Counted from the first letter of the stretch, positions 3,711 through 59,518 are shown. The stretch is 64,000 bases of DNA from Pseudomonadota bacterium (GCA_040387495.1 JAZKDQ010000006.1:49391-113390), one strand, 5' to 3'. Notes: a model not told the origin generated them from the letters alone. Numbers and translations are program-made.

Positions 3711-4217
3711 GTGAGAATGAATTTAAACTACGCCTTCTTTACTGCCACAATCGCTATGATTTTATCAGTGAATACTGCTACCAGTAATTTAATCCAGCAT
3801 GAAAATTATACAAAGTCAGATTTCAGAGACAGTGCAACTTATGTGTTTCTTGAAAGATTCAAAGCAGATGACTCTTTGCCTACGGTAGTTCCTGCAATTA
3901 AGGCTGCTAGCGTTGTGCATTCTGGTGATGCTGATCTTAACACAGCTCCACGTAAGTACACAAAAGCTGACTTCAGAAAAGCTGCAGATTATACATTTGT
4001 CGAAAATTTCAAAGCAGATGATTCTTTGCATCATGTAGAAAAAAGTGTTCCACAAGAACCAAAAAGGACCTGGCCCAGCTATATTGAAACAAAAGCGTCA
4101 GAAGGCTTGACTTACATATATAATTCCACAAAGAACGCATTTGGATCAGCTATGAGTTGGGGATCAAAATTATCTGCAAATCTATCTAGATACATTTCTG
4201 CCACATCATGGTTCTAA
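3711..4217 (+). CDS. Hypothetical secreted protein with an internal duplicated module of about 30 aa
   Basis: 168-aa ORF (GTG 3711 or ATG 3717) with a hydrophobic N-terminus. It contains two copies of Y-T-K-[SA]-D-F-R-x-[SA]-A-x-Y-x-F-[LV]-E-x-F-K-A-D-D-S-L. A good terminator follows. Confidence 0.55.
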   Translation: MRMNLNYAFFTATIAMILSVNTATSNLIQHENYTKSDFRDSATYVFLERFKADDSLPTVVPAIKAASVVHSGDADLNTAPRKYTKADFRKAADYTFVENFKADDSLHHVEKSVPQEPKRTWPSYIETKASEGLTYIYNSTKNAFGSAMSWGSKLSANLSRYISATSWF

Positions 4218-6620: not shown

Positions 6621-7505
6621 ATGCTAAAAGGTTCAATTGTAGCACTTATAACGCCATTTCGTTCTAATCAAATAGATGTCGTGGCCTTAAAACGCCTTTT
6701 AGAATGGCACCTATCTCAAGGCACCGATGGTATTGTTGTATGCGGCACAACAGGAGAAGCAGCCATGCTCACCCCAGAAGAACGTACCCTTATAATAAGC
6801 ATAGCTGTATCTGTACTAAAAGGTAAAGTACCTGTTATTGTTGGCTGCGGCACTTCGTCAACGGCTCAAACATTGACATTTATGCAAGAAGCCGAAACAT
6901 TAGGTGCCGATACCACACTTGTTGTAGCTCCTTATTATGTAAAGCCATCGCAACATGGAATTATCGAACACTTTAAAACTTTACATGAACATACACGGCT
7001 TCCCATTATCGTATACAATAACCCTGGGCGTGTTGGGGTAAATATCGAAATTGAAACAACAGTAAGGCTTTGTGAAATGCCGCGCATACTTGGTTTTAAA
7101 GACTCTCATTCTGACCCAACGCGTATTGCGGCATTAAGACTCGCTGTCGGAAATAAAATGTCTTTGCTTTCAGGTGAAGATAGCATTGCTTCCGCGCACA
7201 TGTTGTATGGTGCAGATGGTGCTATTTCCGTCTTAGGAAACGTTGTGCCTAACTTGTACAAACGCCTTATGAATGCATGGAAAACACACGATATTCAGGC
7301 ATTTACAAAGCTAACATTTGAATTGCATCCATTATGCACAGCTATTTCTGCCGAGACAAATCCATGCACAATTAAGTATGCTGTTTCTAAAATAGGTTAT
7401 TGCACAGCGGATGTACGCTTACCACTAACGCCTATTCGTCCTGAAACAGAAAAACGCATTGATGCAGCACTTACAACATTGAATAAAATGCCGAAAACGG
7501 CCTAG
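6621..7505 (+). CDS. dapA: 4-hydroxy-tetrahydrodipicolinate synthase
   Basis: 294 aa. It has the motifs GTDGIVVCGTTGE, YNNPGR and APYYVKP characteristic of DapA. Confidence 0.9.
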   Translation: MLKGSIVALITPFRSNQIDVVALKRLLEWHLSQGTDGIVVCGTTGEAAMLTPEERTLIISIAVSVLKGKVPVIVGCGTSSTAQTLTFMQEAETLGADTTLVVAPYYVKPSQHGIIEHFKTLHEHTRLPIIVYNNPGRVGVNIEIETTVRLCEMPRILGFKDSHSDPTRIAALRLAVGNKMSLLSGEDSIASAHMLYGADGAISVLGNVVPNLYKRLMNAWKTHDIQAFTKLTFELHPLCTAISAETNPCTIKYAVSKIGYCTADVRLPLTPIRPETEKRIDAALTTLNKMPKTA

Positions 7506-10583: not shown

Positions 10584-13500
10584 TTATGGGCGCATTTTAT
10601 ATAGACTAGCTTTAGACCATAAATTTGTGCCCGTTATTTCTTCAGGACCTTGTATGATTTTGGGACTCGTTGAATCTGAAAGGTCAATGAATATTGGTTC
10701 TTTTTTGTGAAAATCAGGATATTCTTTAAAACAAACTACAGAGTTGCTCATTTGACCATATGCATCGAGACATGAAAATGCTCTACCTAAGATTTTTTTC
10801 GCTCCATCCTTATGCGCTACTAATTGCCAAAATTCACTAACATAGCCATAAGATGACACATGATAACCTTTTTGTGATCCAGGTATATATTCAATCATAA
10901 GACTTCCCGAACCCTGAAAAGAAGAATCTGAGGGGAAACTTATACTTCCCAACTTTCGCTTTAAGGCAGGAATTGGGTCACCAAAATCCTTAGCATCATA
11001 TCGAAACGCACTTTCTGACGTTGTGGGCATGTTAAGATTTTTTCCCTGTTCAATATCCATGGCATCTCTCTGCGCCGCAGCACCTCTGGCTTCAGCTTCA
11101 TCCTCTTGCATGAACTGCCGCTGAAGAGTAGCTGTTAAATTACTTTGTATTTTTTTATAACTTTCACTTGTTTTATCGGGATGTGCATCAAGAGCCTCTT
11201 TAAAAAGCTCTATGGCACGCGGAAAATCGCGGACAACACCATTCGTTCCATTACGAAAAGCATCTGCATATTTATTAATCATATATGATAAACTATTTTG
11301 TATTACCTTATAATAACTGTTCGTTTTATCTGGGTATAAATAAAGACCTTCTTTGAAGAGTTTAATCGCACGCGGATAATCGCGAATAATATCATTCATT
11401 TGAAGAAATAAATCGGTCGCATATCCATGAAGGGTAGTTGCTAACTTACTTTGTATTTTCTTATAACTTTCACTCGTTTTATCGGGATGTACATTAAGAA
11501 CCTCTTTAAAAAGGTCTATGGCACGCGGAAAATTGCGGGTAATATAAACGTCATTCGTTCCATTACAACATTCAAGCGCATATGTAATAAGGGTATTTTC
11601 TAAATTACTTTGCAACTTCTTATAAAATTCCTTTGTTTTATCGGGAACCATATCAAGTGCTTCTTTAAAAAGCTCTATGGCACGCAGCAAATCGCGGACA
11701 ACATCGTTTGTTCCATTACGAAAATCATTTGCATATTCATTAAGTATAGTTGACAAACTAATTTGTATGTTTTTATAATTTTCACTCGTTTTATCTGGAT
11801 GTACATCAAGGGCTTCTTTAAAAAGTTCTATCGCACGTGGCAAATCGCGGGTACAACCATTCGTTTTATGAAATAAATGGCCCGCATATGTATTGAGGGT
11901 ATTTGCTAAATTACTTTGCATTCCCTTATAAGATTCCTCCGTTTTATCGGGATGTACATCAAGAGCCTCTTTAAAAAGTTCTATCGCACGCGGCAAATCG
12001 CGGGTACAACCATTCGGTCCATAAAATAAATGATGGCCCGCATATGTATTAAGGTAAAGCACTAAATTACTTTGCATTTCCTTATAAAATTCCTCCGTTT
12101 TATCGGGATGTACATCAAGAGCCTCTTTAAAAAGTTCAATCGCACGCGGCAAATCGCGGGTACAACCATTCGGTCCATGAAATAAATGATGGCCCGCATA
12201 TGCATTAAGGGAAATTGCTAAATTATTTTGTATTATTTTATAACTTTCACTCGTTTTATCGGGATGTACATCAAGAGCCTCTTTAAAAAGCTCTATGGCA
12301 CCCGGCAAATTGCGGACAATACCATTTGTTCCATTACGAAGATCATTTGCACATTCATTAAGTATAGTTGATAAATTAATTTTCAGCTTCTTATAATGCG
12401 CGCTCGTTTTTTCGGGATGTACATCAAGAACCTCTTTAAAAAACTCTATGGCACGTGGCAAATTGCGGACAATACCATTTGTTCCATTACGAAGATCATT
12501 TGCATATTCATTAAGTATAGTTGATAAATTAATTTTCAGCTTCTTATAAGGCGCGCTCGTTTTATCGGGATGTACATCAAGAACCTCTTTAAAAAACTCT
12601 ATGGCACGCGGCAAATTGCGGACAATACCATTTGTTCCATTACGAACATTATTTGCATATTCATTAAGTATAGTTGACAAAGTAATTTGGATATTTTTGT
12701 AAGAAATGTCAGTTTTATTGGGGTATATATCAATGGATTCTTTACAGATTATAGCAGCACGCAGCAAATCGCGGGTAGAACCATTGGTTCTATTAAATAA
12801 ATCGGTCGCATATGTATTAAGAGTACCTGCTAATTTTTTTTGTATAGTTTTATAAAGCGCGCTCGTTTTATCGGGATTTACATCAAGGGCTTCTTTAAAA
12901 AGTTCAATCGCACGCGGCAAATCGGGGGCAATACCATTTACTACATTACGAAGTTCTTTTGCATATTCATTAAGTATATTTGATAAATTAATTTGCATAG
13001 TTTCATAAGAATTTTCAGTTTTATCGGGATGTACATCAAGGGCTTCTTTAAAAATTTCAATCGCACGCGGCAAATCGCGGACAACACCATTTGTTCCATT
13101 GCCGAAATCAACTGCATATTTATTAAGTATAACTGCTAATTCACTTTGTATAGCTTCATAAGAAAAACTCTTTTTGTTGGGGTCTAAAGGATGAATTTTA
13201 TTGGGGTGCACATCAAGAGCTTCCTTATACAGTTCAATCGCACGCAGCGAATCACGAACAGGATTATTCTTGGCCTCTATACGCAATGCCTGCCATAGCC
13301 CTTTTGCATGTCCTTCGGCTAGTTTTTCATTAGTTACATTTAAAGAAAGACAAGCAAAACTAAGGTTATATATTTCACTCATGTGATCATTAGAAATAAT
13401 GCTATCTGAATTTAAAAGTAAATGTTCTAATTCTGATGGCACAGTGCGTTTAAACACAAGTAAAGGTAAAGGCATACCATCTACATCATGACCACGTGCC

Positions 13501-14462
13501 CGAAGTGTTGGGTTATAATAATAAGCAATAACCGCCTTTGTTATATCAGATTCAGAAGTTTTCACCCCACGTGAAGAGGTGGAATAAAGGGGATAGGACT
13601 CTGGATTATCAAATATATCTTTTACAAAAGCCACTCTTATCTCATTTTCCCTATTGAGATATTGTTGTTTTTCATCAAGTGTCAAGGTAACAACGTAAGA
13701 CCAGCTACTTAGCCCGTCGATTTCCCAACCTTTGTAATTTCCACCAGAAATAGCCAACTGGTCGTAAACTTTAAACAAATTCAATTTTGGCGCACAAAGA
13801 TCAAAAATATCTCCTGAAAGCCTGATGAGCTTTGGGTTTTGTATAAGCACATTGCGTACGGCACCCGTAAATGATGCCACAGTCTTAGCAGACCATCCAT
13901 GAGCTGTCATATTTTTAATAACAGAATCAACAAACGCTTCTGAAACTTCCGTATCTGCAGATTGCTGTAACCATAAATCAGCAAAATCTTCATTATCAAG
14001 TGCTGTTTGTGCTAGTGCGTCAATTGCCATAATTGATGCAAGTTGCGGTATTTCTGTAAGACCGTCGTTGGAGTCAAAATTAGGAATATAACGATTAATC
14101 ATACCACCCTTACCAAGACATGGCTGACCTGGGAAGGTCTGACGTGTTTGAATAACGGAATTAACAAGAAGATCTAGTGATTGACCTGATGGTAATGTCA
14201 CCTCTGTGCAAATTTTCATAATGCAACTAGAAATCTCAGCGGTTAATTCTTTAAGTGCCGAATAGTCATTAAAAATGGCCTGTTCACGACGCTTTTCAAG
14301 ATCACGTAAATCATGCAAGACTGAATCTGAGCTACGTACATCTAAGGATGTTGATGATTGGGCTACTTTAGAGGCTAGCTCACTTGCGAATGCGACGGTA
14401 AATGGAGCAAGTATTGCAAGCGTCAGCGCTGTAGATGCATAAAGGTATTTTTTGATTTTCAT
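10584..14462 (-). CDS. Large secreted repeat protein: signal peptide, N-terminal domain of about 400 aa, 14 x 51-aa TPR-like repeats, C-terminal domain of about 175 aa
   Basis: ORF track 10584..14510. Preferred start is ATG 14462 (MKIKKYLYASTALTLAILAPFTVAFASE). The repeat consensus is [VT]RDLPRAIELFKEALDVHPDKTSESYKKIQSNLxxxLNxYAxxxxNGTNG. The flanking domains are unrecognisable. Confidence 0.8.
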   Translation of the reverse strand: MKIKKYLYASTALTLAILAPFTVAFASELASKVAQSSTSLDVRSSDSVLHDLRDLEKRREQAIFNDYSALKELTAEISSCIMKICTEVTLPSGQSLDLLVNSVIQTRQTFPGQPCLGKGGMINRYIPNFDSNDGLTEIPQLASIMAIDALAQTALDNEDFADLWLQQSADTEVSEAFVDSVIKNMTAHGWSAKTVASFTGAVRNVLIQNPKLIRLSGDIFDLCAPKLNLFKVYDQLAISGGNYKGWEIDGLSSWSYVVTLTLDEKQQYLNRENEIRVAFVKDIFDNPESYPLYSTSSRGVKTSESDITKAVIAYYYNPTLRARGHDVDGMPLPLLVFKRTVPSELEHLLLNSDSIISNDHMSEIYNLSFACLSLNVTNEKLAEGHAKGLWQALRIEAKNNPVRDSLRAIELYKEALDVHPNKIHPLDPNKKSFSYEAIQSELAVILNKYAVDFGNGTNGVVRDLPRAIEIFKEALDVHPDKTENSYETMQINLSNILNEYAKELRNVVNGIAPDLPRAIELFKEALDVNPDKTSALYKTIQKKLAGTLNTYATDLFNRTNGSTRDLLRAAIICKESIDIYPNKTDISYKNIQITLSTILNEYANNVRNGTNGIVRNLPRAIEFFKEVLDVHPDKTSAPYKKLKINLSTILNEYANDLRNGTNGIVRNLPRAIEFFKEVLDVHPEKTSAHYKKLKINLSTILNECANDLRNGTNGIVRNLPGAIELFKEALDVHPDKTSESYKIIQNNLAISLNAYAGHHLFHGPNGCTRDLPRAIELFKEALDVHPDKTEEFYKEMQSNLVLYLNTYAGHHLFYGPNGCTRDLPRAIELFKEALDVHPDKTEESYKGMQSNLANTLNTYAGHLFHKTNGCTRDLPRAIELFKEALDVHPDKTSENYKNIQISLSTILNEYANDFRNGTNDVVRDLLRAIELFKEALDMVPDKTKEFYKKLQSNLENTLITYALECCNGTNDVYITRNFPRAIDLFKEVLNVHPDKTSESYKKIQSKLATTLHGYATDLFLQMNDIIRDYPRAIKLFKEGLYLYPDKTNSYYKVIQNSLSYMINKYADAFRNGTNGVVRDFPRAIELFKEALDAHPDKTSESYKKIQSNLTATLQRQFMQEDEAEARGAAAQRDAMDIEQGKNLNMPTTSESAFRYDAKDFGDPIPALKRKLGSISFPSDSSFQGSGSLMIEYIPGSQKGYHVSSYGYVSEFWQLVAHKDGAKKILGRAFSCLDAYGQMSNSVVCFKEYPDFHKKEPIFIDLSDSTSPKIIQGPEEITGTNLWSKASLYKMRP
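11110..13270 (-). repeat. Intragenic tandem repeat, 14 units, period mostly 153 bp
   Basis: The motif (C/T)ATGGCACGCGG / AATCGCACGCGG (reverse complement of the PRAIE codons) recurs near 11211, 11361, 11515, 11675, 11830, 11983, 12137, 12293, 12447, 12600, 12753, 12906, 13059 and 13240. Confidence 0.85.
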
Positions 14463-15119
14463 TTTTTTTCTCTTCTTTATTTTTATTATGTATGCGGCTG
14501 GAAGTACCATTGAGGGCTCTGTCGCAAATTTTTAGTAGAAGTAATTTTATTTTGAAAAGTTGTTTCTAAGTATAAAAAATTTGAGATTTTCAGCTCATTT
14601 TCTTTAAAGAGCATACTTACTTTTATAAAATTACTTAAAATTTCAGGATGCGATAGAACTGCCGCATTGCTTCTTGCTACGCAGCGGCAAGTTCATTCCC
14701 ATCATTCATACAAAAGCCGTTTCCCACAATAAATGTTTTTGTTAAAAATAATGCTAATTTTCTCATAATTATATTTCTTTTCGACATATTCGATTTTTCT
14801 ATACTTATTATATATACATGAAACAATAAATATTCAAGGAGGGAAATGAAAAAATATTTTAGCCGGATCATATGCCCTCTTTTTCGATGATTTTGGATAA
14901 AATAGCAATACCTATACTCCGTCGTCACTGTGAATCGGTTCTGAGCGCTGTAGTAGCTCATCCTTAACCAATATTCTAAAAAATGAATGTAAAAAGTTTG
15001 GCAGCTAGGGCAGTATTACAATCAGTAAGACGCATGAGAGTCAATAGTTTACTTCTAGTCAGTGTTTTTCTATTACTTCTTGAGGCATTGAAATTAAGAA
15101 AAATCTGACTGTAGGAAAT

Positions 15120-15300
15120 GTGAAATTCCTTAACCGAACGCCATTGGCGCCAGAGCACCCTCAGCGCCTTTGACGAGGTTTTCTTCATTGCGAAACTTCG
15201 TAGAGGGTGTGGCAATCTCTCTCGTGTGTATTCCTCGTGTTTGACACGTGGATCTAGATCCCCGGATCACGTCCAGGGATGACACGGGAGGGGAACATAA
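15120..15300. repeat. Composite repeat copy C: solo IS4-like end plus hairpin modules, inverted relative to copy A
   Basis: TAACCGAACGCCATTGG at 15131-15147 matches the IR core at 9534-9550 / 10412-10427. The reverse complement of 15226-15300 carries CCACGTG-TCAAA-CACGAGG and a GTCATCCC...GGGGATC hairpin. Confidence 0.5.
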
Positions 15301-15339
15301 ATCGCAATGACGGGACTGAATTCAATAAGGTGTTATTTT

Positions 15340-16767
15340 CTACCCAACCATTTGCTTAAGTGTATCCGCAGACGGCGTGCCAAACTCACGTAGCAGCGTA
15401 ATGCTAATGCGGCGATTTGACTCAGCAAAGGGATCTTCTTTCACAAACGGGTCTGTTGCCTCTTTCCCCATTACAGACTCGAACCGTTTCGCATCAACAT
15501 TAAATTCTTCCAGTGTGCGACGCGTCGCATTTGCGCGGTCTGCTGACAACTCCCAATTGCTATACTTACGTGTCCCCACAAAGGGGTGTGCATCTGTATG
15601 ACCCGATATCACGAGCGCATTCGGCATCTTATCAATTAAATTCGCGACCGTCCTAAGCAGCTGTTTTGTAAGCACTGTCATGGAACTACTGCCAGATGCA
15701 AACATTGATCGCTTATCCTTATCTATCAGTTGGATGCGAAGTCCCTCTGGTCTATTCTCAATGATAATATGTGGCATCAACCCTTTTAATTCCGGGTTTT
15801 TCTGAACAAGATTCTTAATTGACGCAGCCACTTCTTTTAGCTTCTCATTCTCGGCCAACTGAAGTTTTTTGATGGCTTCTCGCGTTTCTCTTGACTCAGC
15901 AGCTGCTTTCTCAATTGCTTTTTGCTGCTCCATCTTTTTATCAGATAATGCACTGGAAATAGAGCGTTCATACGTTGTAGCAGCCATGTTATTTTTAATT
16001 GTGTTTGCCGCTTGGTTGAGCGTTTTTTCTTCCATTGCTTTTTTAGACACTTGGGTTTTTGCAGTTTTAATTTCGTGCAGATCTACTTTAATTATTTTTT
16101 CAATAGTCTCATTTATTTTTTTTACTTCTATTTTAGCTGAATCAACTTTAGTAGGCGCAGCTTTAGGCTGTTCTTTTTTAACCTGTTCTGCTTTAGAGGG
16201 ATCAGCTTTAGTCACACCATTCTTTTGCGTCTTGCTCAAAGCTTGCTCTTGTTTCATCTTTAATGGCTCCACGACAACTTGCTCTTTTGCAGCCGATACA
16301 GTTGATTTTTCGACAGACTTGATTGAATCATTCTTTTTTATTTTTTCACTATTCGTAGGGTCAACCTTATTTTTTTTAGCTGCATTCAAAGCATCCTTAC
16401 TAACGTCCTTTTTATCTTGAAATTCATCTTGATGTTTGCTTTTTACTACATCGACTTCAATTTCAGTGCTTTTTGCACGTTCCTCTGTACTTTTCCCGCT
16501 GCTATTATTTGGATTGCTTAAATTAACACCCCCCAACAATCCAGCGCTTCCATTTTGGGTTTGTGTGTTAATAAAACTTGGCGAGAAATAATCGGCGATC
16601 CCTTTACGTTGCTCTTCGCTTGTAACGTTAATCAACCACATAAGCAAAAAAAAGGCCATCATTGCTGTTACAAAATCTGCGTATGCAATCTTCCAACTAC
16701 CACCATGTGCTTCATGTGGTTTTTTCTTACCCCGCTTTTTAATAATAATAATAGGTTTATTATCCAT
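15340..16767 (-). CDS. motB: Flagellar motor stator protein MotB with an unusually long Lys/Glu-rich linker
   Basis: 475 aa. The N-terminus WKIAYADFVTAMMAFFLLMWL is the MotB TM/plug region. The C-terminus has the OmpA-like motif ISGHTD...NWELSADRANATRR. About 250 aa of K/E/A/S-rich sequence lies between them. Confidence 0.85.
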   Translation of the reverse strand: MDNKPIIIIKKRGKKKPHEAHGGSWKIAYADFVTAMMAFFLLMWLINVTSEEQRKGIADYFSPSFINTQTQNGSAGLLGGVNLSNPNNSSGKSTEERAKSTEIEVDVVKSKHQDEFQDKKDVSKDALNAAKKNKVDPTNSEKIKKNDSIKSVEKSTVSAAKEQVVVEPLKMKQEQALSKTQKNGVTKADPSKAEQVKKEQPKAAPTKVDSAKIEVKKINETIEKIIKVDLHEIKTAKTQVSKKAMEEKTLNQAANTIKNNMAATTYERSISSALSDKKMEQQKAIEKAAAESRETREAIKKLQLAENEKLKEVAASIKNLVQKNPELKGLMPHIIIENRPEGLRIQLIDKDKRSMFASGSSSMTVLTKQLLRTVANLIDKMPNALVISGHTDAHPFVGTRKYSNWELSADRANATRRTLEEFNVDAKRFESVMGKEATDPFVKEDPFAESNRRISITLLREFGTPSADTLKQMVG

Positions 16768-35036: not shown

Positions 35037-35112
35037 GTCCCCTTCGTCTAGTGGCCTAGGATACCACCCTCTCACGGTGTAGACACGGGTTCGACTCCCG
35101 TAGGGGACGCCA
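35037..35112 (+). tRNA. tRNA-Glu (anticodon CUC)
   Basis: GTCCCCT acceptor stem pairs with AGGGGAC. The anticodon stem CCACC/GGTGT has loop CT-CTC-AC. T-arm is ACGGG-TTCGACT-CCCGT. A 3-prime GCCA is encoded. Confidence 0.9.
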
Positions 35113-35182
35113 AATTTCAGTCTTATGATGTCCAGTATTGTTTTAAAATTCCTATAAATACGATTACGAAAAACATATAACA

Positions 35183-35935
35183 ATGCTCACAGACCCTCCC
35201 CGTCCCTTTTGGCAACATGTGGCAGAACTGCGCACTGCAGTTATTATTTCGCTGACATTCTTTCTGATTGGCACAGGCGTTGCTTATTTTTTATCTGAAC
35301 CCATTTTTCATATTCTTGTGTCACCGCTGGAACAACTCTTCGCAATCAAAGGCGAGGCACGTCGATTCATATACACCAACCTTACCGAAGCATTTGTCAC
35401 TTATCTTAAAGTTGCTCTCTTTGCTGGGCTATTTTTCACATTTCCTTTTATCGCACTACAAGCATGGTTATTCATTAGTCCAGGATTATTCAAACGCGAG
35501 CGAGGACTTTTTTTCGTTCTGTTATTTTCAATTCCATTCTTTTTCACTGTTGGCGCTCTTTTTGCCTACTATATTGTTTTACCTGCTGCATTTTCGTTCT
35601 TTTTAAGTTTTGAAACAATGATCGGCAGCATACCATTGCAGTTAGAAACCAGAATGAGCGAATATTTATCGCTCGTCATGCGAATGCTGTTGGCATTTGG
35701 GCTTAGTTTTGAGCTGCCTGTTATTTTAGGCGGTCTCGCTTGGCTCGGCATACTCTCGAAAGAGACATTAATCAAACCTTGGCGTTTAGCCGTTGTAGGT
35801 GTGACATTTCTTGCCGCCATTATTACGCCACCTGATGCGCTCAGCATGATTTTGCTCGCACTGCCGTTGCTATTTTTATATGCTTTATCTATTATTGTCG
35901 TTAGCTTTATAGAAAAACATAAAAACCATGCATGA
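35183..35935 (+). CDS. tatC: Sec-independent protein translocase TatC, copy 1
   Basis: 250 aa, 6 [15 protein letters not shown]..., ...PGLFKRERG... and ...ITPPDALSM... typical of TatC. It is identical to copy 2 except for residue 2. Confidence 0.85.
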   Translation: MLTDPPRPFWQHVAELRTAVIISLTFFLIGTGVAYFLSEPIFHILVSPLEQLFAIKGEARRFIYTNLTEAFVTYLKVALFAGLFFTFPFIALQAWLFISPGLFKRERGLFFVLLFSIPFFFTVGALFAYYIVLPAAFSFFLSFETMIGSIPLQLETRMSEYLSLVMRMLLAFGLSFELPVILGGLAWLGILSKETLIKPWRLAVVGVTFLAAIITPPDALSMILLALPLLFLYALSIIVVSFIEKHKNHA

Positions 35936-35989
35936 CATTAAATTTATTCGCAGCACCCCTGATCAATTCAACGCCGGCCTTGCGCGTCG
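35928..35989 (+). pseudogene. Truncated 5-prime fragment of serS (first 20 codons)
   Basis: [20 protein letters not shown] matches the start of the full serS at 38810. Similarity ends at 35989 and the sequence continues into IS982-type sequence. Confidence 0.8.
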
Positions 35990-36643: not shown

Positions 36644-37951
36644 ATGCGCTTAACCTCTATAAAAATTCTGCCGCTGCTATTTACAATTTTTTGTAATGAC
36701 ATTTGCAATGCATCAACACAAGAAATTTCAAAAGATCTTGCGGTTTTGGCAAAACAATTTACAGGACGTTTTTTAAAGAATGGTTATTCACAATCTGACA
36801 TTTACGATGCATTGATTTACCTCAGGAAGCAAACTGAAATGAACATTTATGTTTACACATTTAAAAACAAAACATGGACAATGATTCCTTTTAGTCCTCA
36901 AAAAGACTGTTCAACAAACTATCCACAATCTCGATTATTACTTTCATGGCTGAATGAAAACGCAACAAAAAAGATAAAAGAAGGTTTTACCTTCTGTAGC
37001 GTCCCTCAAGAACCAATCCATGACAATAGTTGGCTGGGAGAAGAACGCCAAATAAAAATAAGGCATTTATTTGATACATGTCCAGTTTTAGCAACATGCA
37101 CTCATCCTGAGATTTTATGGACAGAAAATGCCGTACTTATTCCAGATTATTTTATTTTAAATGAAAACTATTATTCAAATTGTAATGAAATAATAAAAGA
37201 AAACAATACTTCTTTTGTGAATAGAAAACCAGTCATTTTCTTTCGCGGAGCAATAACAGGTGCCTATTCTCAGATACAATATGACATGGAAAGTATAAAA
37301 AAAGATGATCGTTTAGTGTTATTTGGCATGTCAAAAGAAAAAGAATTTATTGATGCAAAAATAACTGCTGACTATTGGCTGGATAACGAAGGAAAGGCAA
37401 CCGTAGATTTTCTAAACTGGTACAAACACAATTTAACCAGCAGAAAAAGTGCTCCCGTAGATTTTATAGCGCATGCCCAAAATAAGTATCTTATATCGAT
37501 TGATGGATTCGGAGCAGCATGGTCACGTGTCCCCTATATTTTATTTACAGGATCTGTCTTATTATTACGCGCAGATTGCAAACAATATTTTTATAAATTA
37601 CTCACGCCGAAGAAAACGCATGTTGAGATAAATCGCTATTTAACAAACATTGAAGAAGTTTACACATATCTTGAACAAAATCCTAAAGTTGCAGAATCTA
37701 TTGCCAATAACGGCAAAGCTTTTGCTGAAAAATACTTGATAAAAGACGCGATTGATACATATCTAACACATGTTATTTATGATTTAAATGAGGCATACTA
37801 TGAGCCCACGGGATGGATGAACAAAACTATTCTTGCATTCAAAAAAATAAGATTTCAAATCGCAGAAATCAAATATGCATCAAAAAGATATTTCAGAAAA
37901 CATTTAAAACCGTATTTTATGAGATTAAAATCAATAACCCATAATATTTAA
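36644..37951 (+). CDS. Glycosyltransferase family 90 (CAP10 / protein O-glucosyltransferase-like) with N-terminal signal sequence
   Basis: 435 aa. RKPVIFFRGAITG..., KYLISIDGFGAAWSRVPYILFTGSVLLL..., YFYKLLTPKKTHVEINRYLTNIEEVYTYLEQNPKVAESIANNGKAFAEKYL aligns by eye with the C-terminal catalytic region of POGLUT1/KDELC/CAP10 proteins. The gene is AT-rich. Confidence 0.75.
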   Translation: MRLTSIKILPLLFTIFCNDICNASTQEISKDLAVLAKQFTGRFLKNGYSQSDIYDALIYLRKQTEMNIYVYTFKNKTWTMIPFSPQKDCSTNYPQSRLLLSWLNENATKKIKEGFTFCSVPQEPIHDNSWLGEERQIKIRHLFDTCPVLATCTHPEILWTENAVLIPDYFILNENYYSNCNEIIKENNTSFVNRKPVIFFRGAITGAYSQIQYDMESIKKDDRLVLFGMSKEKEFIDAKITADYWLDNEGKATVDFLNWYKHNLTSRKSAPVDFIAHAQNKYLISIDGFGAAWSRVPYILFTGSVLLLRADCKQYFYKLLTPKKTHVEINRYLTNIEEVYTYLEQNPKVAESIANNGKAFAEKYLIKDAIDTYLTHVIYDLNEAYYEPTGWMNKTILAFKKIRFQIAEIKYASKRYFRKHLKPYFMRLKSITHNI

Positions 37952-38064
37952 GCTTCGTTGAAAAAGCATGCACCACATATGAAGTCAGAAACTATAATTC
38001 TAATGAAACCAGATTAAATTGATGCTCCAATCAATATAAAAAGAGAAAAATTGCATATATTATC

Positions 38065-38817
38065 ATGATCACAGACCCTCCCCGTCCGTTTTGGCAACAT
38101 GTGGCAGAACTGCGCACTGCAGTTATTATTTCGCTGACATTCTTTCTGATTGGCACAGGCGTTGCTTATTTTTTATCTGAACCCATTTTTCATATTCTTG
38201 TGTCACCGCTGGAACAACTCTTCGCAATCAAAGGCGAGGCACGTCGATTCATATACACCAACCTTACCGAAGCATTTGTCACTTATCTTAAAGTTGCTCT
38301 CTTTGCTGGGCTATTTTTCACATTTCCTTTTATCGCACTACAAGCATGGTTATTCATTAGTCCAGGATTATTCAAACGCGAGCGAGGACTTTTTTTCGTT
38401 CTGTTATTTTCAATTCCATTCTTTTTCACTGTTGGCGCTCTTTTTGCCTACTATATTGTTTTACCTGCTGCATTTTCGTTCTTTTTAAGTTTTGAAACAA
38501 TGATCGGCAGCATACCATTGCAGTTAGAAACCAGAATGAGCGAATATTTATCGCTCGTCATGCGAATGCTGTTGGCATTTGGGCTTAGTTTTGAGCTGCC
38601 TGTTATTTTAGGCGGTCTCGCTTGGCTCGGCATACTCTCGAAAGAGACATTAATCAAACCTTGGCGTTTAGCCGTTGTAGGTGTGACATTTCTTGCCGCC
38701 ATTATTACGCCACCTGATGCGCTCAGCATGATTTTGCTCGCACTGCCGTTGCTATTTTTATATGCTTTATCTATTATTGTCGTTAGCTTTATAGAAAAAC
38801 ATAAAAACCATGCATGA
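38065..38817 (+). CDS. tatC: Sec-independent protein translocase TatC, copy 2 (contiguous with full-length serS)
   Basis: 250 aa, same motifs as copy 1. Its stop overlaps the serS start (ATGCATGA). Confidence 0.9.
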
Positions 38818-38871
38818 CATTAAATTTATTCGCAGCACCCCTGATCAATTCGACGCCGGCCTTGCGCGCCG
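38065..38871 (+). repeat. Direct repeat 2 (807 bp) of the tatC-serS-prime duplication
   Basis: See 35183-35989. Confidence 0.9.
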
Positions 38872-54925: not shown

Positions 54926-55894
54926 ATGCAATTAACCCTTCCAGAACCAACAGGACAGTATAGAATAGGCCTCACGAAATTTGAACTTTATGATGAGGAC
55001 CGCCCCGAAATTGAGCACCCTAAAGGACGTTTAATCCCATTTCAAATTTATTTTCCGACTATCATTGGTACAAATTCTCCTCAACCAAAAATATTCGAAC
55101 CCCGTGCGCCAAGAACATTCTCGCCACTCGATGTAATGGGATACAGTTCCCCTGCCCACCTTTCAAAACTAGCCCCAGGGCAACACCCAATTATTTTTTT
55201 AAATCATGGGCATGATGTTGCGATGACAGATTATGCATGCATTGCTGAGGATCTTGCATCGCATGGATATATAGTTTTTTCAATTCAACATCAGCTTGAT
55301 ACGGACAAAGATCCTCCGGAGTTTTGGAAAGAGCGCAGTATTTCAAAATATGCGAACGTTATTGACAACATATTATATGTATTTGAATGGCTAAAACAAA
55401 AGCAGGCGGATCTTTTCAACAGTAAACTTTATCTTTCAAAAATAGGACTAATTGGCCACTCACTAGGTGGAAATGCTTTACAACTTTTTGCAAATCGAGC
55501 TGCTTCTTCCTTTAAAAAGAAAGAAAGGCTGACATTGCTGCCACACGATACTACTAATGCGGAGATAAAAGAATGCATTATTGTTTTGGATGCAGGCGGG
55601 GTTTCATACCCAAGCAGCAATCAATTTCCATTTCTTTTTCTATTATCAGGTGAGCGCGAATCTTATCAAAAAGAATCTGCCATGTATGATGATATGATCA
55701 AAATTGGTCACAAAGTGAAATATTACCCGGGATCTAAACATATTAGTTTCATGGATCACGGCTATGTCGATCCGCCTAATCCCGTTAATGCATGCGAACA
55801 TTATTTTAATGGGACGCGTGCTGAAATTGATGTCTTCTGGCAAACATTACCTCAGGATATTCGTGATTTTTTAAAACAAAACGGGGTGACTTAA
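54926..55894 (+). CDS. Alpha/beta hydrolase, PAF-acetylhydrolase / lipase-like
   Basis: 322 aa. The N-terminus is GQYRIGLTKFELYDEDRPE...FQIYFP. The nucleophile elbow is GHSLGG. Downstream D and H candidates are present. Confidence 0.65.
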   Translation: MQLTLPEPTGQYRIGLTKFELYDEDRPEIEHPKGRLIPFQIYFPTIIGTNSPQPKIFEPRAPRTFSPLDVMGYSSPAHLSKLAPGQHPIIFLNHGHDVAMTDYACIAEDLASHGYIVFSIQHQLDTDKDPPEFWKERSISKYANVIDNILYVFEWLKQKQADLFNSKLYLSKIGLIGHSLGGNALQLFANRAASSFKKKERLTLLPHDTTNAEIKECIIVLDAGGVSYPSSNQFPFLFLLSGERESYQKESAMYDDMIKIGHKVKYYPGSKHISFMDHGYVDPPNPVNACEHYFNGTRAEIDVFWQTLPQDIRDFLKQNGVT

Positions 55895-55964: not shown

Positions 55965-56186
55965 ATGCAACTAACTCTCATGACCAGCATTGTTGTCTAT
56001 TTTATCACGTGGTGGGTAGTGCTGTTTATGGTGCTGCCAATTGGCATTAGGCAAAACAGATCCCCTGCCAAAGGCTGGGATGCCGGTGCGCCGCGCAATC
56101 CAAACATCAAACACAAATTGCTTATGGTAACGATTATCACCACTGTTTTGTTTGCTGTATATATTGCCGTAATGCTGTGGGTTTAA
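55965..56186 (+). CDS. DUF1467 family small membrane protein
   Basis: 73 aa, two TM. ...FITWWVVLFMVLPIG...GAPRNPNIKHK... matches the conserved alphaproteobacterial DUF1467 pattern. Confidence 0.75.
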   Translation: MQLTLMTSIVVYFITWWVVLFMVLPIGIRQNRSPAKGWDAGAPRNPNIKHKLLMVTIITTVLFAVYIAVMLWV

Positions 56187-56212
56187 GGCTAATCCACTAG
56201 GCCTCAACTATG

Positions 56213-58315
56213 TTATTCTTCAATTTCACCGACACATGTTTTCAAGTAATATCCCAGACTTTTGTTTTTCAAAATAGCTTCAGCTTCTTCCCAAGATATG
56301 CCACGTTTATATTTTAAACTTTCCAAAACACGTACAATTGACAAGGAAACCACGGATGCATCGTTATGTTCTTGCTTGTAATTCATGACATCAAACAAAA
56401 CGGCATTGGCTGCTGCATAGCTAATGAGAGGACAATTCCCATAGTATTTAATCCATGCTGGATGTGCTAACTGTTCATTGACATGATTCTCTATCAAAAA
56501 CGTTGCCCGATCGATTAATTTTAAATTAGATGGTTTTACATAAGTCATTGTGTTGCCAACAATTCGCCCAAGTTTTGCCATTACTGCCGTTGAATGTGCA
56601 TTCATTAACATTTTAAGGCTAATTTGTTGATTGAGGCCAAGGGGATCTCCTTGTTGAAAAACTGGTGTCGCCAAAACAGTGGCATTTGGATACATATTTC
56701 TTATTTTTTCCAAATTTTGTTTTGTTAACGTGTTTGGTGCAATGGCAACAATGACTAATTTAGTATTAACTGATGAGAACAAAACGAGCCACTTTGCAAA
56801 AAGCACCTCAATTGGCTGTTCATCTGAGAACAATACGATAACACCCAAATTATTTTCAACAGGCTTTCGATTAGCAATATTAGCCGATGAAAAAGAAAAA
56901 TCATAAATATATTGCTGGTCATTGCCAGCTTTGTTCAAACTTTTTAATGCTGTTTCTCGTGAATGTGGATCATCTATTTCATTCTCAAAATAAGGCTTAT
57001 AAAATGATGAATCTAAGCCTCTAAAAGGTCGCTGCAAGAGTGCAAACCAAGCCTCTTGACGATTATCAGCTGGCGAACAAATTTGAATCCACGACTTTCT
57101 CTCTTGTCTATTAACTGGATCCAATGGATAAAGACTAAATGTTGGTGCTCGCTCTGTTGAATCAGTAAAAACGGTTAACAATGCTTGCTGAGCTACATAT
57201 GTTGTGCGGTTATGCGAAGCGTATGTTTCTGATTCTAGGTCTGTCCATTTACTAAGCGAACTAGCCATATTAAAAATATTTTGTTGAAGATCAACAAAGC
57301 TTAACAGACGTTTTTTTATAGTCATGCCAGGGGGAAAACCAAGCTTTTCCAATTCCTGGTCAGATAAATACTGTTTCAACAGAGTACGAATGGCATCTTC
57401 TAGTATGATCCCCATTACAAAGAGCGCGCTCGTGGTTGCTTGCATGCGTGTTGAGCCAGCCAATGCTTGAGGTCCAGTCGTTAAATTTATTTTTATAATA
57501 GAAGAATCATCAAGAACTGAACGACTTCTATGAAATGGATATAGCAAATTATCAGGATTATTATACAGAAAAAATAATTTTCCTGGTTTCTGGTCCCTGC
57601 TTTGTTGGGCGGCATCTAAAATAGTGCCAATGACGGCGGAAGTCTCTCCGCCTTCACTAATAGCAAACACGACATCCTCTTTGGTAATTTGGTAATTTTG
57701 TTTTTGCAACTTACCAATTAGCTGTAAATCCTCAAACCCCTCCAGCGAACTAATCAGCGCGCGATCTCCCCCTGTCATTTCCCCTATAAGTTGTTCTTCA
57801 ATATCAGAAAAATGCGGGCCTATTTTTTTCCATTCAGGTTTTGTTTGTACATTCATCCAAAAAGAACGCCACAATGAACTTTCAATTTGTTTTGCTAAAC
57901 GACCGGGGGAGCCAGTGCCATATATATAAATTTTTCGTCGTTGCTTAATCGCTTTTTGAATAGCTTCTGAAGCTTTTTTTAATTTTTCCATATATGCTGG
58001 ATTTCCTGCCATCTCCGTGAATTTTTGAGAAATATCAGCATCGACAGACAGCAAGGCCTGCAATCCAGCCGTTGTGTTATCAATACATACGTCACTTAAG
58101 TTTATTGTTTTTGGATGGCGTTGTTCGGTTAAAAGACTATGAACCTGAAATTGCTTTTTATTTTTTACATAATCAATAGATTGAGCAGATGGGGAGATAT
58201 TTAATATTTTTAAAACAGTGGATGACACCTGTGCTCTTGACGAGAAAATTATATATATCAATATAATTGCAATAAAAAAACTTACTATAAATTTAAATGT
58301 GTTTTCGATTAACAT
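56213..58315 (-). CDS. Membrane-anchored double-SIS protein of the MurQ etherase / glucokinase-regulatory-protein (GKRP) superfamily
   Basis: ORF track 56213..58357. Preferred start is ATG 58315 (MLIENTFKFIVSFFIAIILIYIIFSS = TM anchor). TEQRHPKTINLS (cf. TE..NP.T..ID), YIYGTGSPGRLA, MTGGDRALISSLEGFEDL, TTGPQALAGSTRMQATTS, and a C-terminal ...NAHSTAVMAKLGRIVGNTMTYVKPSNLKLIDRA... all parallel human GKRP. At 700 aa it has the GKRP-type two-domain length, not the 300-aa MurQ length. Confidence 0.65.
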   Translation of the reverse strand: MLIENTFKFIVSFFIAIILIYIIFSSRAQVSSTVLKILNISPSAQSIDYVKNKKQFQVHSLLTEQRHPKTINLSDVCIDNTTAGLQALLSVDADISQKFTEMAGNPAYMEKLKKASEAIQKAIKQRRKIYIYGTGSPGRLAKQIESSLWRSFWMNVQTKPEWKKIGPHFSDIEEQLIGEMTGGDRALISSLEGFEDLQLIGKLQKQNYQITKEDVVFAISEGGETSAVIGTILDAAQQSRDQKPGKLFFLYNNPDNLLYPFHRSRSVLDDSSIIKINLTTGPQALAGSTRMQATTSALFVMGIILEDAIRTLLKQYLSDQELEKLGFPPGMTIKKRLLSFVDLQQNIFNMASSLSKWTDLESETYASHNRTTYVAQQALLTVFTDSTERAPTFSLYPLDPVNRQERKSWIQICSPADNRQEAWFALLQRPFRGLDSSFYKPYFENEIDDPHSRETALKSLNKAGNDQQYIYDFSFSSANIANRKPVENNLGVIVLFSDEQPIEVLFAKWLVLFSSVNTKLVIVAIAPNTLTKQNLEKIRNMYPNATVLATPVFQQGDPLGLNQQISLKMLMNAHSTAVMAKLGRIVGNTMTYVKPSNLKLIDRATFLIENHVNEQLAHPAWIKYYGNCPLISYAAANAVLFDVMNYKQEHNDASVVSLSIVRVLESLKYKRGISWEEAEAILKNKSLGYYLKTCVGEIEE

Positions 58316-58572
58316 ACTCGACACCTCTTTTCTTGACTTGATAACTATGAACAACAATTGAACAAGGGATGCGCCTAGAATAAACCTCTAACATACAGAT
58401 TCCAATCACAGCAGGACACATCTCACTCAATTTCATAAAGTGAGATTACACACAATTCATGTATTACTGAGCAATTCATAAAAAACGATAGATCATAAAT
58501 AATAAATAATAAAGGGGCAAAGACAGTGAAATTCCTAACGCGAACTAACATCAGAACCATATCAAAAAAACA

Positions 58573-58818
58573 ATGTTTTACTTATTTTCTATACAATTGC
58601 TAATGTTGCGACAAAGTAGCAGTGCATATGCGATTACACGTCTCATTAGAGTCAGGCAAGATCATGCACCCATCAATGGCTGCGATGCCGGCGCCCCGTA
58701 TAATCCAAACATCAAACACAAATTGCTTATTGTAACGCTTATCATCACGATTTTGTTTGATATGTATGTAGCTATGATGTTGTGTACTTTAAGGACAGGA
58801 CAACATATCAGCACTTAA
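58573..58818 (+). pseudogene. Degenerate second copy of the DUF1467 gene
   Basis: 58645-58795 aligns with 56047-56190 (GATGCCGG.GC.CCG...AATCCAAACATCAAACACAAATTGCTTAT.GTAACG.TTATCA.CAC). The peptide ...DAGAPYNPNIKHKLLIVTLIITILF... retains the C-terminal half, but the first TM helix is replaced by polar sequence. Confidence 0.5.
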
Positions 58819-58954
58819 GCCAGCCATAATTGTACAAAAAATCTCTCTTGCACAAAACAAACTAACATGTTAAAAACCACCAGGTTTAACAACATTTTTT
58901 TGTTAGATTTATATTAATTTTATTAAAATAGATACATTCAAGGAAACGCCCATC

Positions 58955-59518
58955 ATGCAAAATAAAATATTAATGGCACTCATATGCACAGTAAGTTTAT
59001 ATATCAGCACTGGTTATGCAATGAACAATGTAGATTTCATTGGGCTTGAAATAGGAGCCACCCCCACTAATGTTGCAAGTGCCAATTGCATGGATATATT
59101 CGATGGAATTGCTTTCTGTGGCACACATACATACATTTATGAATCTGATGAGGACGCAGGAAAACTAAATAGAAATGCACTCAAAACAGAAAAAAAACGT
59201 TCAAAAAATGTTGACTTAGATGCAGATGAAATGAGAAAAAGTGAAGTGCTTTCAGCGCTAGCAGTCCTAGCCATTCATGGAGTCGCTCCCGAAGAACAAG
59301 ACTGTACTTCTGACACAAAGGATCAAAATTCTAAAATTCAAAAACGAAAAAAATCTGCACGCAAGAATCAAACAATACGTGAGAAGCAAGAAGGCGTTAA
59401 CTTGGAAATGACTGACATCGCAGCACAAACACATGCTACAAACACGAATAAAGCATCCGAATTTCTAGAGCACGCAGAGGATCCAGCATCTAAAGAATAT
59501 TTAATTTCTATTTTATAA
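58955..59518 (+). CDS. Hypothetical secreted Lys-rich protein
   Basis: 187 aa. The signal-like N-terminus is MQNKILMALICTVSLYISTGYA. No recognisable domain. Confidence 0.5.
   Translation: MQNKILMALICTVSLYISTGYAMNNVDFIGLEIGATPTNVASANCMDIFDGIAFCGTHTYIYESDEDAGKLNRNALKTEKKRSKNVDLDADEMRKSEVLSALAVLAIHGVAPEEQDCTSDTKDQNSKIQKRKKSARKNQTIREKQEGVNLEMTDIAAQTHATNTNKASEFLEHAEDPASKEYLISIL

Follow-up and report, generated by a model that had tools for sequence, protein, structure and literature searches.

The double-SIS gene and its product

In a 64,000-nucleotide (nt) stretch of a Pseudomonadota genome (GCA_040387495.1, JAZKDQ010000006.1:49391-113390; hereafter the window, with positions counted from its first letter), a gene for a protein of 700 amino acids (aa) lies on the minus strand between two copies of a DUF1467 gene, in the interval between hemY and rseP. 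An earlier note, made from the sequence alone, had related this protein to the N-acetylmuramate-6-phosphate etherase MurQ and to the glucokinase regulatory protein (GKRP). The gene and the parts of its product are as follows.

56213..58315, minus strand: double-SIS, MurQ/GKRP-like gene, an open reading frame (ORF) of 700 aa with its stop codon at 56213–56215
58229..58315, minus strand: signal peptide or signal anchor, codons 1–29, MLIENTFK-FIVSFFIAIILIYIIFSS-RAQ
57416..58183, minus strand: SIS-1, about aa 45–300, MurQ-like, with TEQRHP, GTGSPGRLA, GGDRALISSLEGFED, EGGETS and GSTRMQ; Pfam SIS_2 and GKRP_SIS_N
56645..57415, minus strand: SIS-2, about aa 301–557, a diverged alpha/beta domain with the family-invariant DxTERxPTF; strands assigned by DSSP
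56216..56644, minus strand: C-terminal lid, about aa 558–700, placed by alignment to MurQ 200–265 and to GKRP at about 486–538

The ORF is present as the earlier note had described it, and all four motifs quoted there (TEQRHPKTINLS, GTGSPGRLA, GGDRALISSLEGFED and GPQALAGSTRM) occur in the protein. The Shine-Dalgarno sequence AAGAGG at 58329–58324, 8 nt ahead of the ATG at 58315, favours this ATG as the probable start rather than that of the NCBI gene call (GenBank MES2607738.1, 671 aa), which begins at V30 and so omits the signal or anchor segment. An alternative TTG start further upstream, which would give 714 aa, has no Shine-Dalgarno sequence.

Residues 56–297 of the protein align with MurQ 5–206, and residues 558–621 with MurQ 200–265 and the beginning of the GKRP lid, while the approximately 260 residues between these two parts gave no match in sequence searches. 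The similarity to MurQ is significant for PDB 4s12 (E = 9e-13, or 1.4e-19 using the family profile) and for NCBIfam PRK05441 (E = 3e-29), although the latter match is below the cutoff of the model, as are those to all the curated MurQ models TIGR00274, PRK05441 and PRK12570 (the three scores against their cutoffs being 101.9 vs 168, 88.3 vs 255 and 82.5 vs 302 bits). The Pfam domain GKRP_SIS_N (PF22645) is barely above its gathering cutoff (27.2 vs 27.0 bits), and SIS_2 is likewise at threshold. The C-terminal block aligns with GKRP at about 435–538 (E = 1e-3; 2e-5 using the family profile), which bears out the parallel with the GKRP lid suggested earlier. The family profile scores 73 bits for MurQ and 26 bits for GKRP, the GKRP match lying within the lid; by sequence, the protein is nearer to MurQ than to GKRP.

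The predicted structure gives a fuller picture. The AlphaFold2 model, built with 40 homologues, reached a predicted local distance difference test value (pLDDT) of 91.2 and a predicted template modelling score (pTM) of 0.90. The best seven PDB matches found by Foldseek were full-length GKRP chains (E = 1e-17 to 4e-19, about 690 columns), with template modelling (TM) scores of 0.58–0.61 normalised to the query and 0.69–0.73 normalised to the target; for 3w0l_B, the values were E = 3.6e-19, 697 columns, 0.61 and 0.71, and 4bb9 was similar. MurQ chains covered only about 310 columns, and other double-SIS enzymes (the isomerase domain of GFAT/GlmS, and AgaS) about 505–525. In the model, SIS-2 has five strands alternating with helices according to DSSP and superposes on GKRP, GlmS/GFAT and AgaS.

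Since the GKRP superposition spans the full length, the middle region can be read as a second SIS-like alpha/beta domain, and the model supports the order SIS-1, SIS-2, lid, as in GKRP and unlike the single-SIS MurQ. The GKRP-like two-domain layout proposed in the earlier note thus agrees with the structure search, which gave these three parts instead of a single SIS domain joined to unrelated sequence. It is only the predicted structure that points to the identity of the second SIS domain: SIS-1 and SIS-2 compared with hhalign gave no significant internal repeat (E = 0.28), and a SIS-2 profile of 15 sequences matched no PDB chain, GKRP and MurQ included, at E ≤ 10.

The active-site signature was compared in a MAFFT alignment of 11 sequences, consisting of E. 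coli MurQ, six exported and four cytoplasmic double-SIS proteins. MurQ residues E111, E114 and D115, the GxGxxGRL loop, GSxRM (GSSRM) and the lid motifs are invariant in this alignment. E195, in the LEGFED motif of the window protein, aligns with Glu114 in the VEGAED motif of E. coli MurQ, a residue to which Hadi et al. in 2008 reportedly assigned a catalytic role; the catalytic residues of MurQ are Glu83, which follows the GRLG helix, and Glu114. Among 40 family members, E195, E145-S146, EGGETS and GSTR are invariant.

A large family with a predicted export signal

More than 3600 clusters at 90% identity match the window protein, with clustering at 50% identity 587 clusters have matches below E = 1e-30, and relatives are encoded in at least 585 GTDB species genomes. 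The top 120 homologues are all of about 650–780 aa and 47–58% identical to the window protein. The hosts include Lysobacterales (Pseudoxanthomonas, Luteimonas, Lysobacter), Aminicenantes, Acidobacteriota, Bacteroidales/Rikenellaceae, Chlamydiae, a Legionella metagenome-assembled genome (MAG) and unclassified Pseudomonadota; database entries call the members either 'N-acetylmuramic acid 6-phosphate etherase (family protein)' or hypothetical. From these matches, the exported double-SIS proteins form a large, uncharacterised bacterial branch of the MurQ/GKRP superfamily, and the window gene is no rarity. In a neighbour-joining tree, the window protein stands alone on a long branch, and no donor lineage is identifiable from the tree.

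A basic n-region, a hydrophobic core of 10–15 residues and a small-x-small site were found in 95 of the 120 closest homologues; most of the others are either gene calls cut short or members of a small subgroup beginning with MSxILxY. The hydrophobic N-terminal segment of the window protein comprises residues 9–26. The earlier note had described it as an unusual single transmembrane helix; the hydrophobic residues are present, but the segment is no oddity or mere anchor, since the closest homologues carry signal-peptide-like N-termini. Given these family-wide signal peptides, it is therefore best read as the local version of a predicted export signal.

Second-tier relatives of about 560–640 aa (Armatimonadota, Phycisphaerales, Chlamydiota) have the same motifs and the double-SIS span but no signal peptide. 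Among other double-SIS relatives, P0200, P0203, P0225, P0229 and P0277 (about 1200 aa) have a C-terminal half of about 600 aa matching no identified function, and P0067 (984 aa) is fused to cytidine/dCMP deaminase domains; a dCMP deaminase gene is also the conserved upstream neighbour of the family gene in Aminicenantes. Literature searches, which did not cover the 2009 Veiga-da-Cunha paper, turned up no published bacterial GKRP-like two-SIS relative of MurQ, and none that is exported.

Gene neighbourhoods

We surveyed 83 loci with up to 10 kb of flanking sequence, counting genes for NamZ, GH20 hexosaminidase and sodium:solute symporter family (SSF) proteins within 3 kb of the family gene. NamZ (PF07075), an exo-beta-N-acetylmuramidase characterised in Bacillus subtilis (PMC8054146), was found in 22 of the 83 loci, distributed over Lysobacterales (8/10), Aminicenantes (7/27), Acidobacteriota (2/6) and the Legionella MAG (1/1). 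GH20 hexosaminidase genes are present in 6/83 loci, and an SSF symporter gene lies directly downstream on the same strand in 11/83. In all seven Bacteroidia loci, the family gene is located between a GH2 glycosidase and an exported PHP phosphoesterase, whose best PDB match is 3e38 (E = 7e-83). The adjacency of NamZ in four unrelated lineages is hard to explain other than by a functional link to the release of N-acetylmuramic acid (MurNAc) from peptidoglycan.

An insertion between hemY and rseP

The features surrounding the double-SIS gene are listed below.

54926..54940, plus strand: B0, the first 15 nt of the ancestral DUF1467 gene, ATGCAATTAACCCTT, encoding MQLTL; identical to L175 1668–1682, right after hemY
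54926..55894, plus strand: second cargo gene, for a 322-aa alpha/beta-hydrolase (chlorophyllase / platelet-activating factor acetylhydrolase (PAF-AH)-like), by Pfam
55965..56186, plus strand: B1, intact DUF1467 gene, 73 aa, two transmembrane helices; Pfam PF07330, 70.3 bits, E = 1.3e-19, cutoff 29.4
58316..58644, no strand: AT-rich 330-nt spacer upstream of the double-SIS gene, with the Shine-Dalgarno sequence at 58324–58329 and a 20-mer at 58526–58545
58636..58818, plus strand (ORF 58573..58818): B2, 5'-truncated DUF1467 gene, codons about 23–73, stop codon lost; PF07330, 27.6 bits
58955..59518, plus strand: ORF187, an orphan with a signal-peptide-like start, in the resident small-ORF slot from DUF1467 to rseP; no Pfam match

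The locus is thus richer than was described earlier, with three DUF1467-derived pieces and two cargo genes. That B1 and B2 are duplicates, as the earlier note had it, follows from blastn (56069–56188 vs 58674–58794, 80% over 121 nt, E = 1.5e-25), from an ungapped DNA repeat (56040–56179 vs 58645–58784, 75%) and from the proteins (62% identity over 47 aa, E = 2e-22). The loss of the first transmembrane helix from B2 holds as well: the Pfam match of B2 (E = 2.9e-6, 27.6 bits, under the cutoff of 29.4) is confined to positions 33–75 of the hidden Markov model, and codons 1 to 22–25 of B1, which encode this helix, have no counterpart in B2. The ORF of the hydrolase (MQLTL|PEPTG...) is fused in frame to DUF1467 codons 1–5, that is, to B0, and B1 starts 70 nt after this ORF.

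The sequence of ArgS places the host, an endosymbiont, in Candidatus Paracaedibacteraceae (Holosporales), with 80% identity to a MAG of this family and 55–59% to Finniella and Paracaedibacter. Relatives of the locus (L175, L176 and L178/L179) were recovered through DUF1467 matches; a metagenome scan with RseP gave mostly distant alphaproteobacteria, in none of which DUF1467 lies upstream. In the closest relative, L175, whose hemY and rseP DNA is 81% identical to that of the window, the order is hemY, 8 nt, DUF1467 (73 aa), a 113-aa ORF and rseP. L176 has hemY, a 140-nt spacer and DUF1467, and L178/L179 have hemY, a Peptidase_S26 gene, DUF1467 and rseP. The single uninterrupted DUF1467 gene that the earlier note proposed to look for is thus found in all these relatives, and neither the double-SIS gene nor the hydrolase gene is present in any of them. 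Because the closest relatives have one DUF1467 gene and no double-SIS gene, the latter is accessory in this host, a lineage-specific insertion in the hemY–DUF1467–rseP slot.

The ancestral surroundings of DUF1467 survive to the left at B0 and to the right at B2: B0 stands as in L175, and the sequence downstream of B2 (58834–58887) has its homologue downstream of the single DUF1467 gene of L175 and L176. The hydrolase gene, B1, the double-SIS gene and the spacer between them are therefore extra. The insert matches the genome in GC content, so the event is not recent.

B1, whose protein is 72–78% identical to the DUF1467 proteins of the relatives, shares two derived motifs with B2: DAGAP, which reads D/E-VGAP in every relative, and KHK, which reads KQK. 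The ancestral QDHAPI survives in B2 but has become QNRSPA in B1. Synonymous divergence (dS) between B1 and B2 is about 0.45–0.6, compared with more than 1 to the orthologues, and the ratio of nonsynonymous to synonymous divergence (dN/dS) is 0.4–0.5, compared with about 0.2. The two copies are true paralogs that arose, or were exchanged, within this lineage. The arrival of B1 as a foreign (xenologous) DUF1467 gene together with the cargo is disfavoured by the derived residues that B1 and B2 share and the relatives lack, which leaves room for a donor from the same sub-lineage.

Several smaller features were observed at this locus. The homologous flank past DUF1467 contains a conserved noncoding element (CTTGCACAA...AACTAACATGTTAAAAACC..CAGGTTTTAA; window 58834–58887, L175 1891–1944, L176 about 3875–3925), possibly a promoter or small regulatory element that serves the genes downstream. 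In L176 (3495–3627), DUF1467 is preceded by another conserved element, of about 100 nt, which also precedes both DUF1467 copies of a more distant relative, L089 (8099–8200 and 9898–10000). Neither L175 nor the window, in which the DUF1467 start adjoins hemY, has this element. ORF187 partly resembles the 113-aa ORF of L175 (45% over 47 aa, E = 3e-7; DNA 59186–59282), has a charged, low-complexity C-terminal half and is followed by the conserved rseP leader. The Peptidase_S26 gene of L178, in the slot of the window hydrolase, begins with MQ....

Proposed function and its alternatives

Taken as a whole, the data lead us to lean, with some reserve, towards an exported, fused double-SIS enzyme of the MurQ lineage that takes part in the breakdown of peptidoglycan sugars, the window gene being a lineage-specific insertion. 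Starting from the architecture, the conserved SIS loops and Glu114 equivalent, the signal peptides of the family and its gene neighbourhoods, we infer the chemistry, substrate and location as follows. A single chain would unite two MurQ-like units (SIS-1, then a diverged SIS-2, followed by the lid), mimicking the MurQ homodimer and yielding the architecture of GKRP, and the protein would leave the cytoplasm through a Sec-type signal peptide. Exo-glycosidases would first strip peptidoglycan fragments, with NamZ freeing MurNAc and GH20 freeing N-acetylglucosamine; the family enzyme, as a lyase/hydrolase of the MurQ type, would then convert a MurNAc-type sugar by cleavage of its lactyl ether in the periplasm or outside the cell, and the product would be taken up through SSF or major facilitator superfamily (MFS) transporters.

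The candidate substrates are free MurNAc released by NamZ and MurNAc-6-phosphate from wall-polymer linkage sites. The MurQ mechanism needs an open-chain reducing sugar and two acid/base residues, with the 6-phosphate serving for binding, and MurNAc-6-phosphate occurs outside cells at the points where teichoic acid or arabinogalactan is attached to peptidoglycan. The link to NamZ fits both candidates; we favour MurNAc-6-phosphate over unphosphorylated MurNAc because SIS phosphate-type loops are retained and an exported phosphoesterase is a neighbour.

It should be noted that several observations weigh against this reading. MurNAc-6-phosphate, the known substrate of MurQ, is made in the cytoplasm, so that an exported enzyme of the MurQ type is without an established substrate. 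The equivalent of MurQ Glu83 is ambiguous, the invariant E145-S146 being two positions upstream, beside a 15-residue insertion. Neither NamZ nor GH20 nor SSF genes occur within 3 kb in 50 of the 83 loci, including those of Chlamydiae, most gammaproteobacterial-type MAGs and the window itself, and these genes were found neither anywhere in the 64-kb window nor in L001. Over the 233 highly conserved columns, the window copy has 17 deviations where the family median is 5, one of them being T137P in its GxGxTGR loop; its n-region has no net positive charge, and its hydrophobic core is 18–20 residues long and followed by R27, so that cleavage and even orientation of the signal are uncertain. Because of these deviations, the uncharged n-region and the long core, activity and topology are probably less certain for the window copy than for the family.

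The N-terminus could instead tether a conventional MurNAc-6-phosphate etherase to the inner membrane, facing the cytoplasm and serving ordinary peptidoglycan recycling. The protein keeps the MurQ signature motifs and canonical SIS phosphate-binding loops; its N-terminal flank has no net positive charge and R27 and K36 follow the helix, so that the positive-inside rule could favour an N-out/C-in orientation, and signal peptides are absent altogether from a subgroup of relatives of about 600 aa in Armatimonadota, Phycisphaerales and Chlamydiota. However, proteins with signal peptides greatly predominate among the 120 closest homologues, the enzymes encoded next door (NamZ, GH20 and PHP phosphoesterase) are themselves exported, and the NCBIfam MurQ scores fall far under the cutoffs (102 vs 168 and 82 vs 302 bits). 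We consider such a cytoplasmic role improbable.

Whatever the role of the family elsewhere, the window gene may be a functionless passenger of horizontal transfer heading for decay, an explanation to which we give the same low credence. Its deviations at conserved positions are three times the family median, it has no partner genes nearby, and the slot that it occupies is variable and also holds an orphan ORF and the remnant of a gene. Against decay, the ORF of 700 codons is intact at 38% GC with a good Shine-Dalgarno sequence, 216 of the 233 conserved columns are kept, the identical protein was obtained from independent samples, and the GC content equals that of the host, which indicates that the arrival was not recent.

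Least probable is a non-catalytic protein that, like vertebrate GKRP, uses the MurQ fold only for binding or sensing sugar phosphates: the overall fold is GKRP-like, the ligand loop of the window copy carries T137P, and vertebrate GKRP kept the fold while losing etherase activity (bioRxiv 10.64898/2026.05.08.723886), but non-mammalian GKRPs and a Naegleria homologue are active etherases (same source), the family shows no variation in the Glu114 equivalent or in the VEGxED motif around it, and export and glycosidase neighbours suit an enzyme better.

The preferred reading, that of an exported enzyme of the MurQ lineage, can be carried further, to a broader proposal that we regard as speculative and rather unlikely to hold in full. 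The exported family would remove the D-lactyl ether of MurNAc-type sugars extracytoplasmically, acting on unphosphorylated MurNAc or on linkage-site MurNAc-6-phosphate with the PHP phosphoesterase finishing the process, and the GKRP fusion would be bacterial, eukaryotic GKRP having descended from it, perhaps via the protist-associated Paracaedibacteraceae, Legionella or Chlamydiae.

SIS-domain enzymes act on phosphosugars inside the cell, and an exported enzyme of the MurQ type is therefore unexpected. The identity of about 50% across phyla, together with exo-muramidase and hexosaminidase neighbours, would point to a missing extracytoplasmic step in the digestion of the cell's own wall or that of its prey. 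The literature presents GKRP as the outcome of a fusion, in eukaryotes, between two murQ copies of bacterial origin. The GKRP architecture is widespread in bacteria, in exported and cytoplasmic proteins, and the fusion may thus be bacterial, which would bear on the history of a human diabetes and lipid locus. The window copy is a somewhat degenerate, partner-less representative of the family.

Comparison with MurQ, GKRP and other double-SIS enzymes

MurQ (E. coli b2428; PDB 4s12, 4lzj, 1nri) is homologous to SIS-1 and the C-terminal helices of the window protein (E = 1.4e-19). The two share VEGxED with Glu114, the GxGxSGRL loop, GSxRM and the lid motifs LNxxST, GNxM and NxKLxxR, and both are tied to the catabolism of peptidoglycan sugars through the gene context of NamZ. 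They differ in that the window protein has 700 aa (about 300 in MurQ), of which about 260 form an additional, diverged SIS domain, and is one chain in place of a homodimer; that its family is exported by prediction, whereas MurQ is cytoplasmic; and that it scores below every curated MurQ cutoff.

GKRP (PDB 4bb9, 3w0l, 4ly9) and the GKRP-like etherases of Naegleria have the same SIS-1/SIS-2/lid order, apparently an 'unequal fusion of two MurQ units'. Sequence identity to GKRP is only about 16%, however, with no sequence similarity in SIS-2, and the window protein is bacterial, has a signal peptide and lacks a glucokinase partner; binding of glucokinase is implausible. The fusion event may be shared with GKRP or convergent. 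In the isomerase domain of GlmS/GFAT and in AgaS/tagatose-6-P isomerase, two SIS domains also occur in one chain, but these enzymes are of another lineage and chemistry and lack the MurQ motifs and the lid. Overall, the protein seems most MurQ-like in its working and GKRP-like in its predicted build, and fits neither the curated MurQ models nor GKRP.

Mechanism and recurrence of insertion

The conserved hemY–DUF1467–rseP slot takes up cargo repeatedly, with pieces of the resident gene duplicated at the borders, and so illustrates gene gain by a reduced endosymbiont genome. The more distant relative (L089 and L092, which represent the same genome at 99.9% identity) has at 6873–10222 of L089 (8708–12057 of L092) the order tRNA_bind, Ank, a 3'-truncated DUF1467 gene, an 80-nt copy of the 3' end of tRNA_bind, AAA_14/DUF4143, an intact DUF1467 gene and rseP; the two DUF1467 genes there share a repeat of 295 nt at 86% identity. 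Since the borders of these repeats differ from those in the window, the two insertions are independent. The 80-nt tRNA_bind copy is 94% identical and abuts the truncated DUF1467 gene, which gives an interleaved A..B A'..B' pattern.

The earlier note had called the double-SIS locus a second case in the window of cargo bracketed by a duplicated resident gene, and the other case is confirmed by tatC. This gene and the first 54 nt of serS are duplicated at 35175–35989 and 38057–38871 (815 nt, 99.1%, 7 mismatches), with both tatC copies intact and a eukaryote-type GT90 glycosyltransferase gene (36644–37951) between them as cargo; a tRNA-Glu gene (35037–35112) lies just upstream of the first copy.

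The direct repeats around cargo vary in length (15, about 150, 295 and 815 nt). On account of these variable repeats, the truncation of one copy at the junction and the lack of a transposase or integrase, the pattern fits insertion-duplication and not a transposon. The insertion would have duplicated its target sequence, either by single-crossover integration of a circularised fragment or by template switching or unequal exchange. Campbell-type insertion-duplication and genomic islets show the same direct repeats of a resident gene, with one copy intact and the other truncated at the junction; here, unlike in Campbell-type integration, there is no plasmid backbone, integrase, att site or insertion sequence (IS), and the repeat lengths vary. 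An integrase-mediated genomic island was also considered and rejected, as no recombinase domain lies between 54.9 and 59.7 kb and no tRNA gene is nearby.

As to mobile elements, the earlier note had pointed to a resemblance between the 20-mer at 58526–58545 and a presumed IS4-like end at 15120–15139. The match itself is real (17/20 positions, with an exact core of 11 nt), but nothing marks 15120–15139 as an IS end. The spacer (58316–58644) has no extended similarity to 14.5–15.3 kb or to the rest of the window, Rfam gave nothing in either 20-mer region, and the genes adjoining 15120–15139 (15.3–17.6 kb) are motB and motA. Many pairs matching at 17 of 20 positions are expected by chance, by our estimate, in an all-against-all search of a 64-kb window. 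With neither transposase, terminal inverted repeat nor extended similarity, only an 11-nt core, and motB and motA as neighbours, an IS4-type insertion sequence is not supported, and the hint of mobile-element involvement is not upheld.

The 20-mer at 15120–15139 belongs to a GC-richer (about 45%) noncoding stretch downstream of motB (15100–15340), in which no ORF, Rfam match or window repeat was found. On the minus strand, 10584–14510 encodes a 1308-aa TPR/Sel1 protein with about 13 tandem units of 153–156 nt (11087–13234; 68–93% identity).

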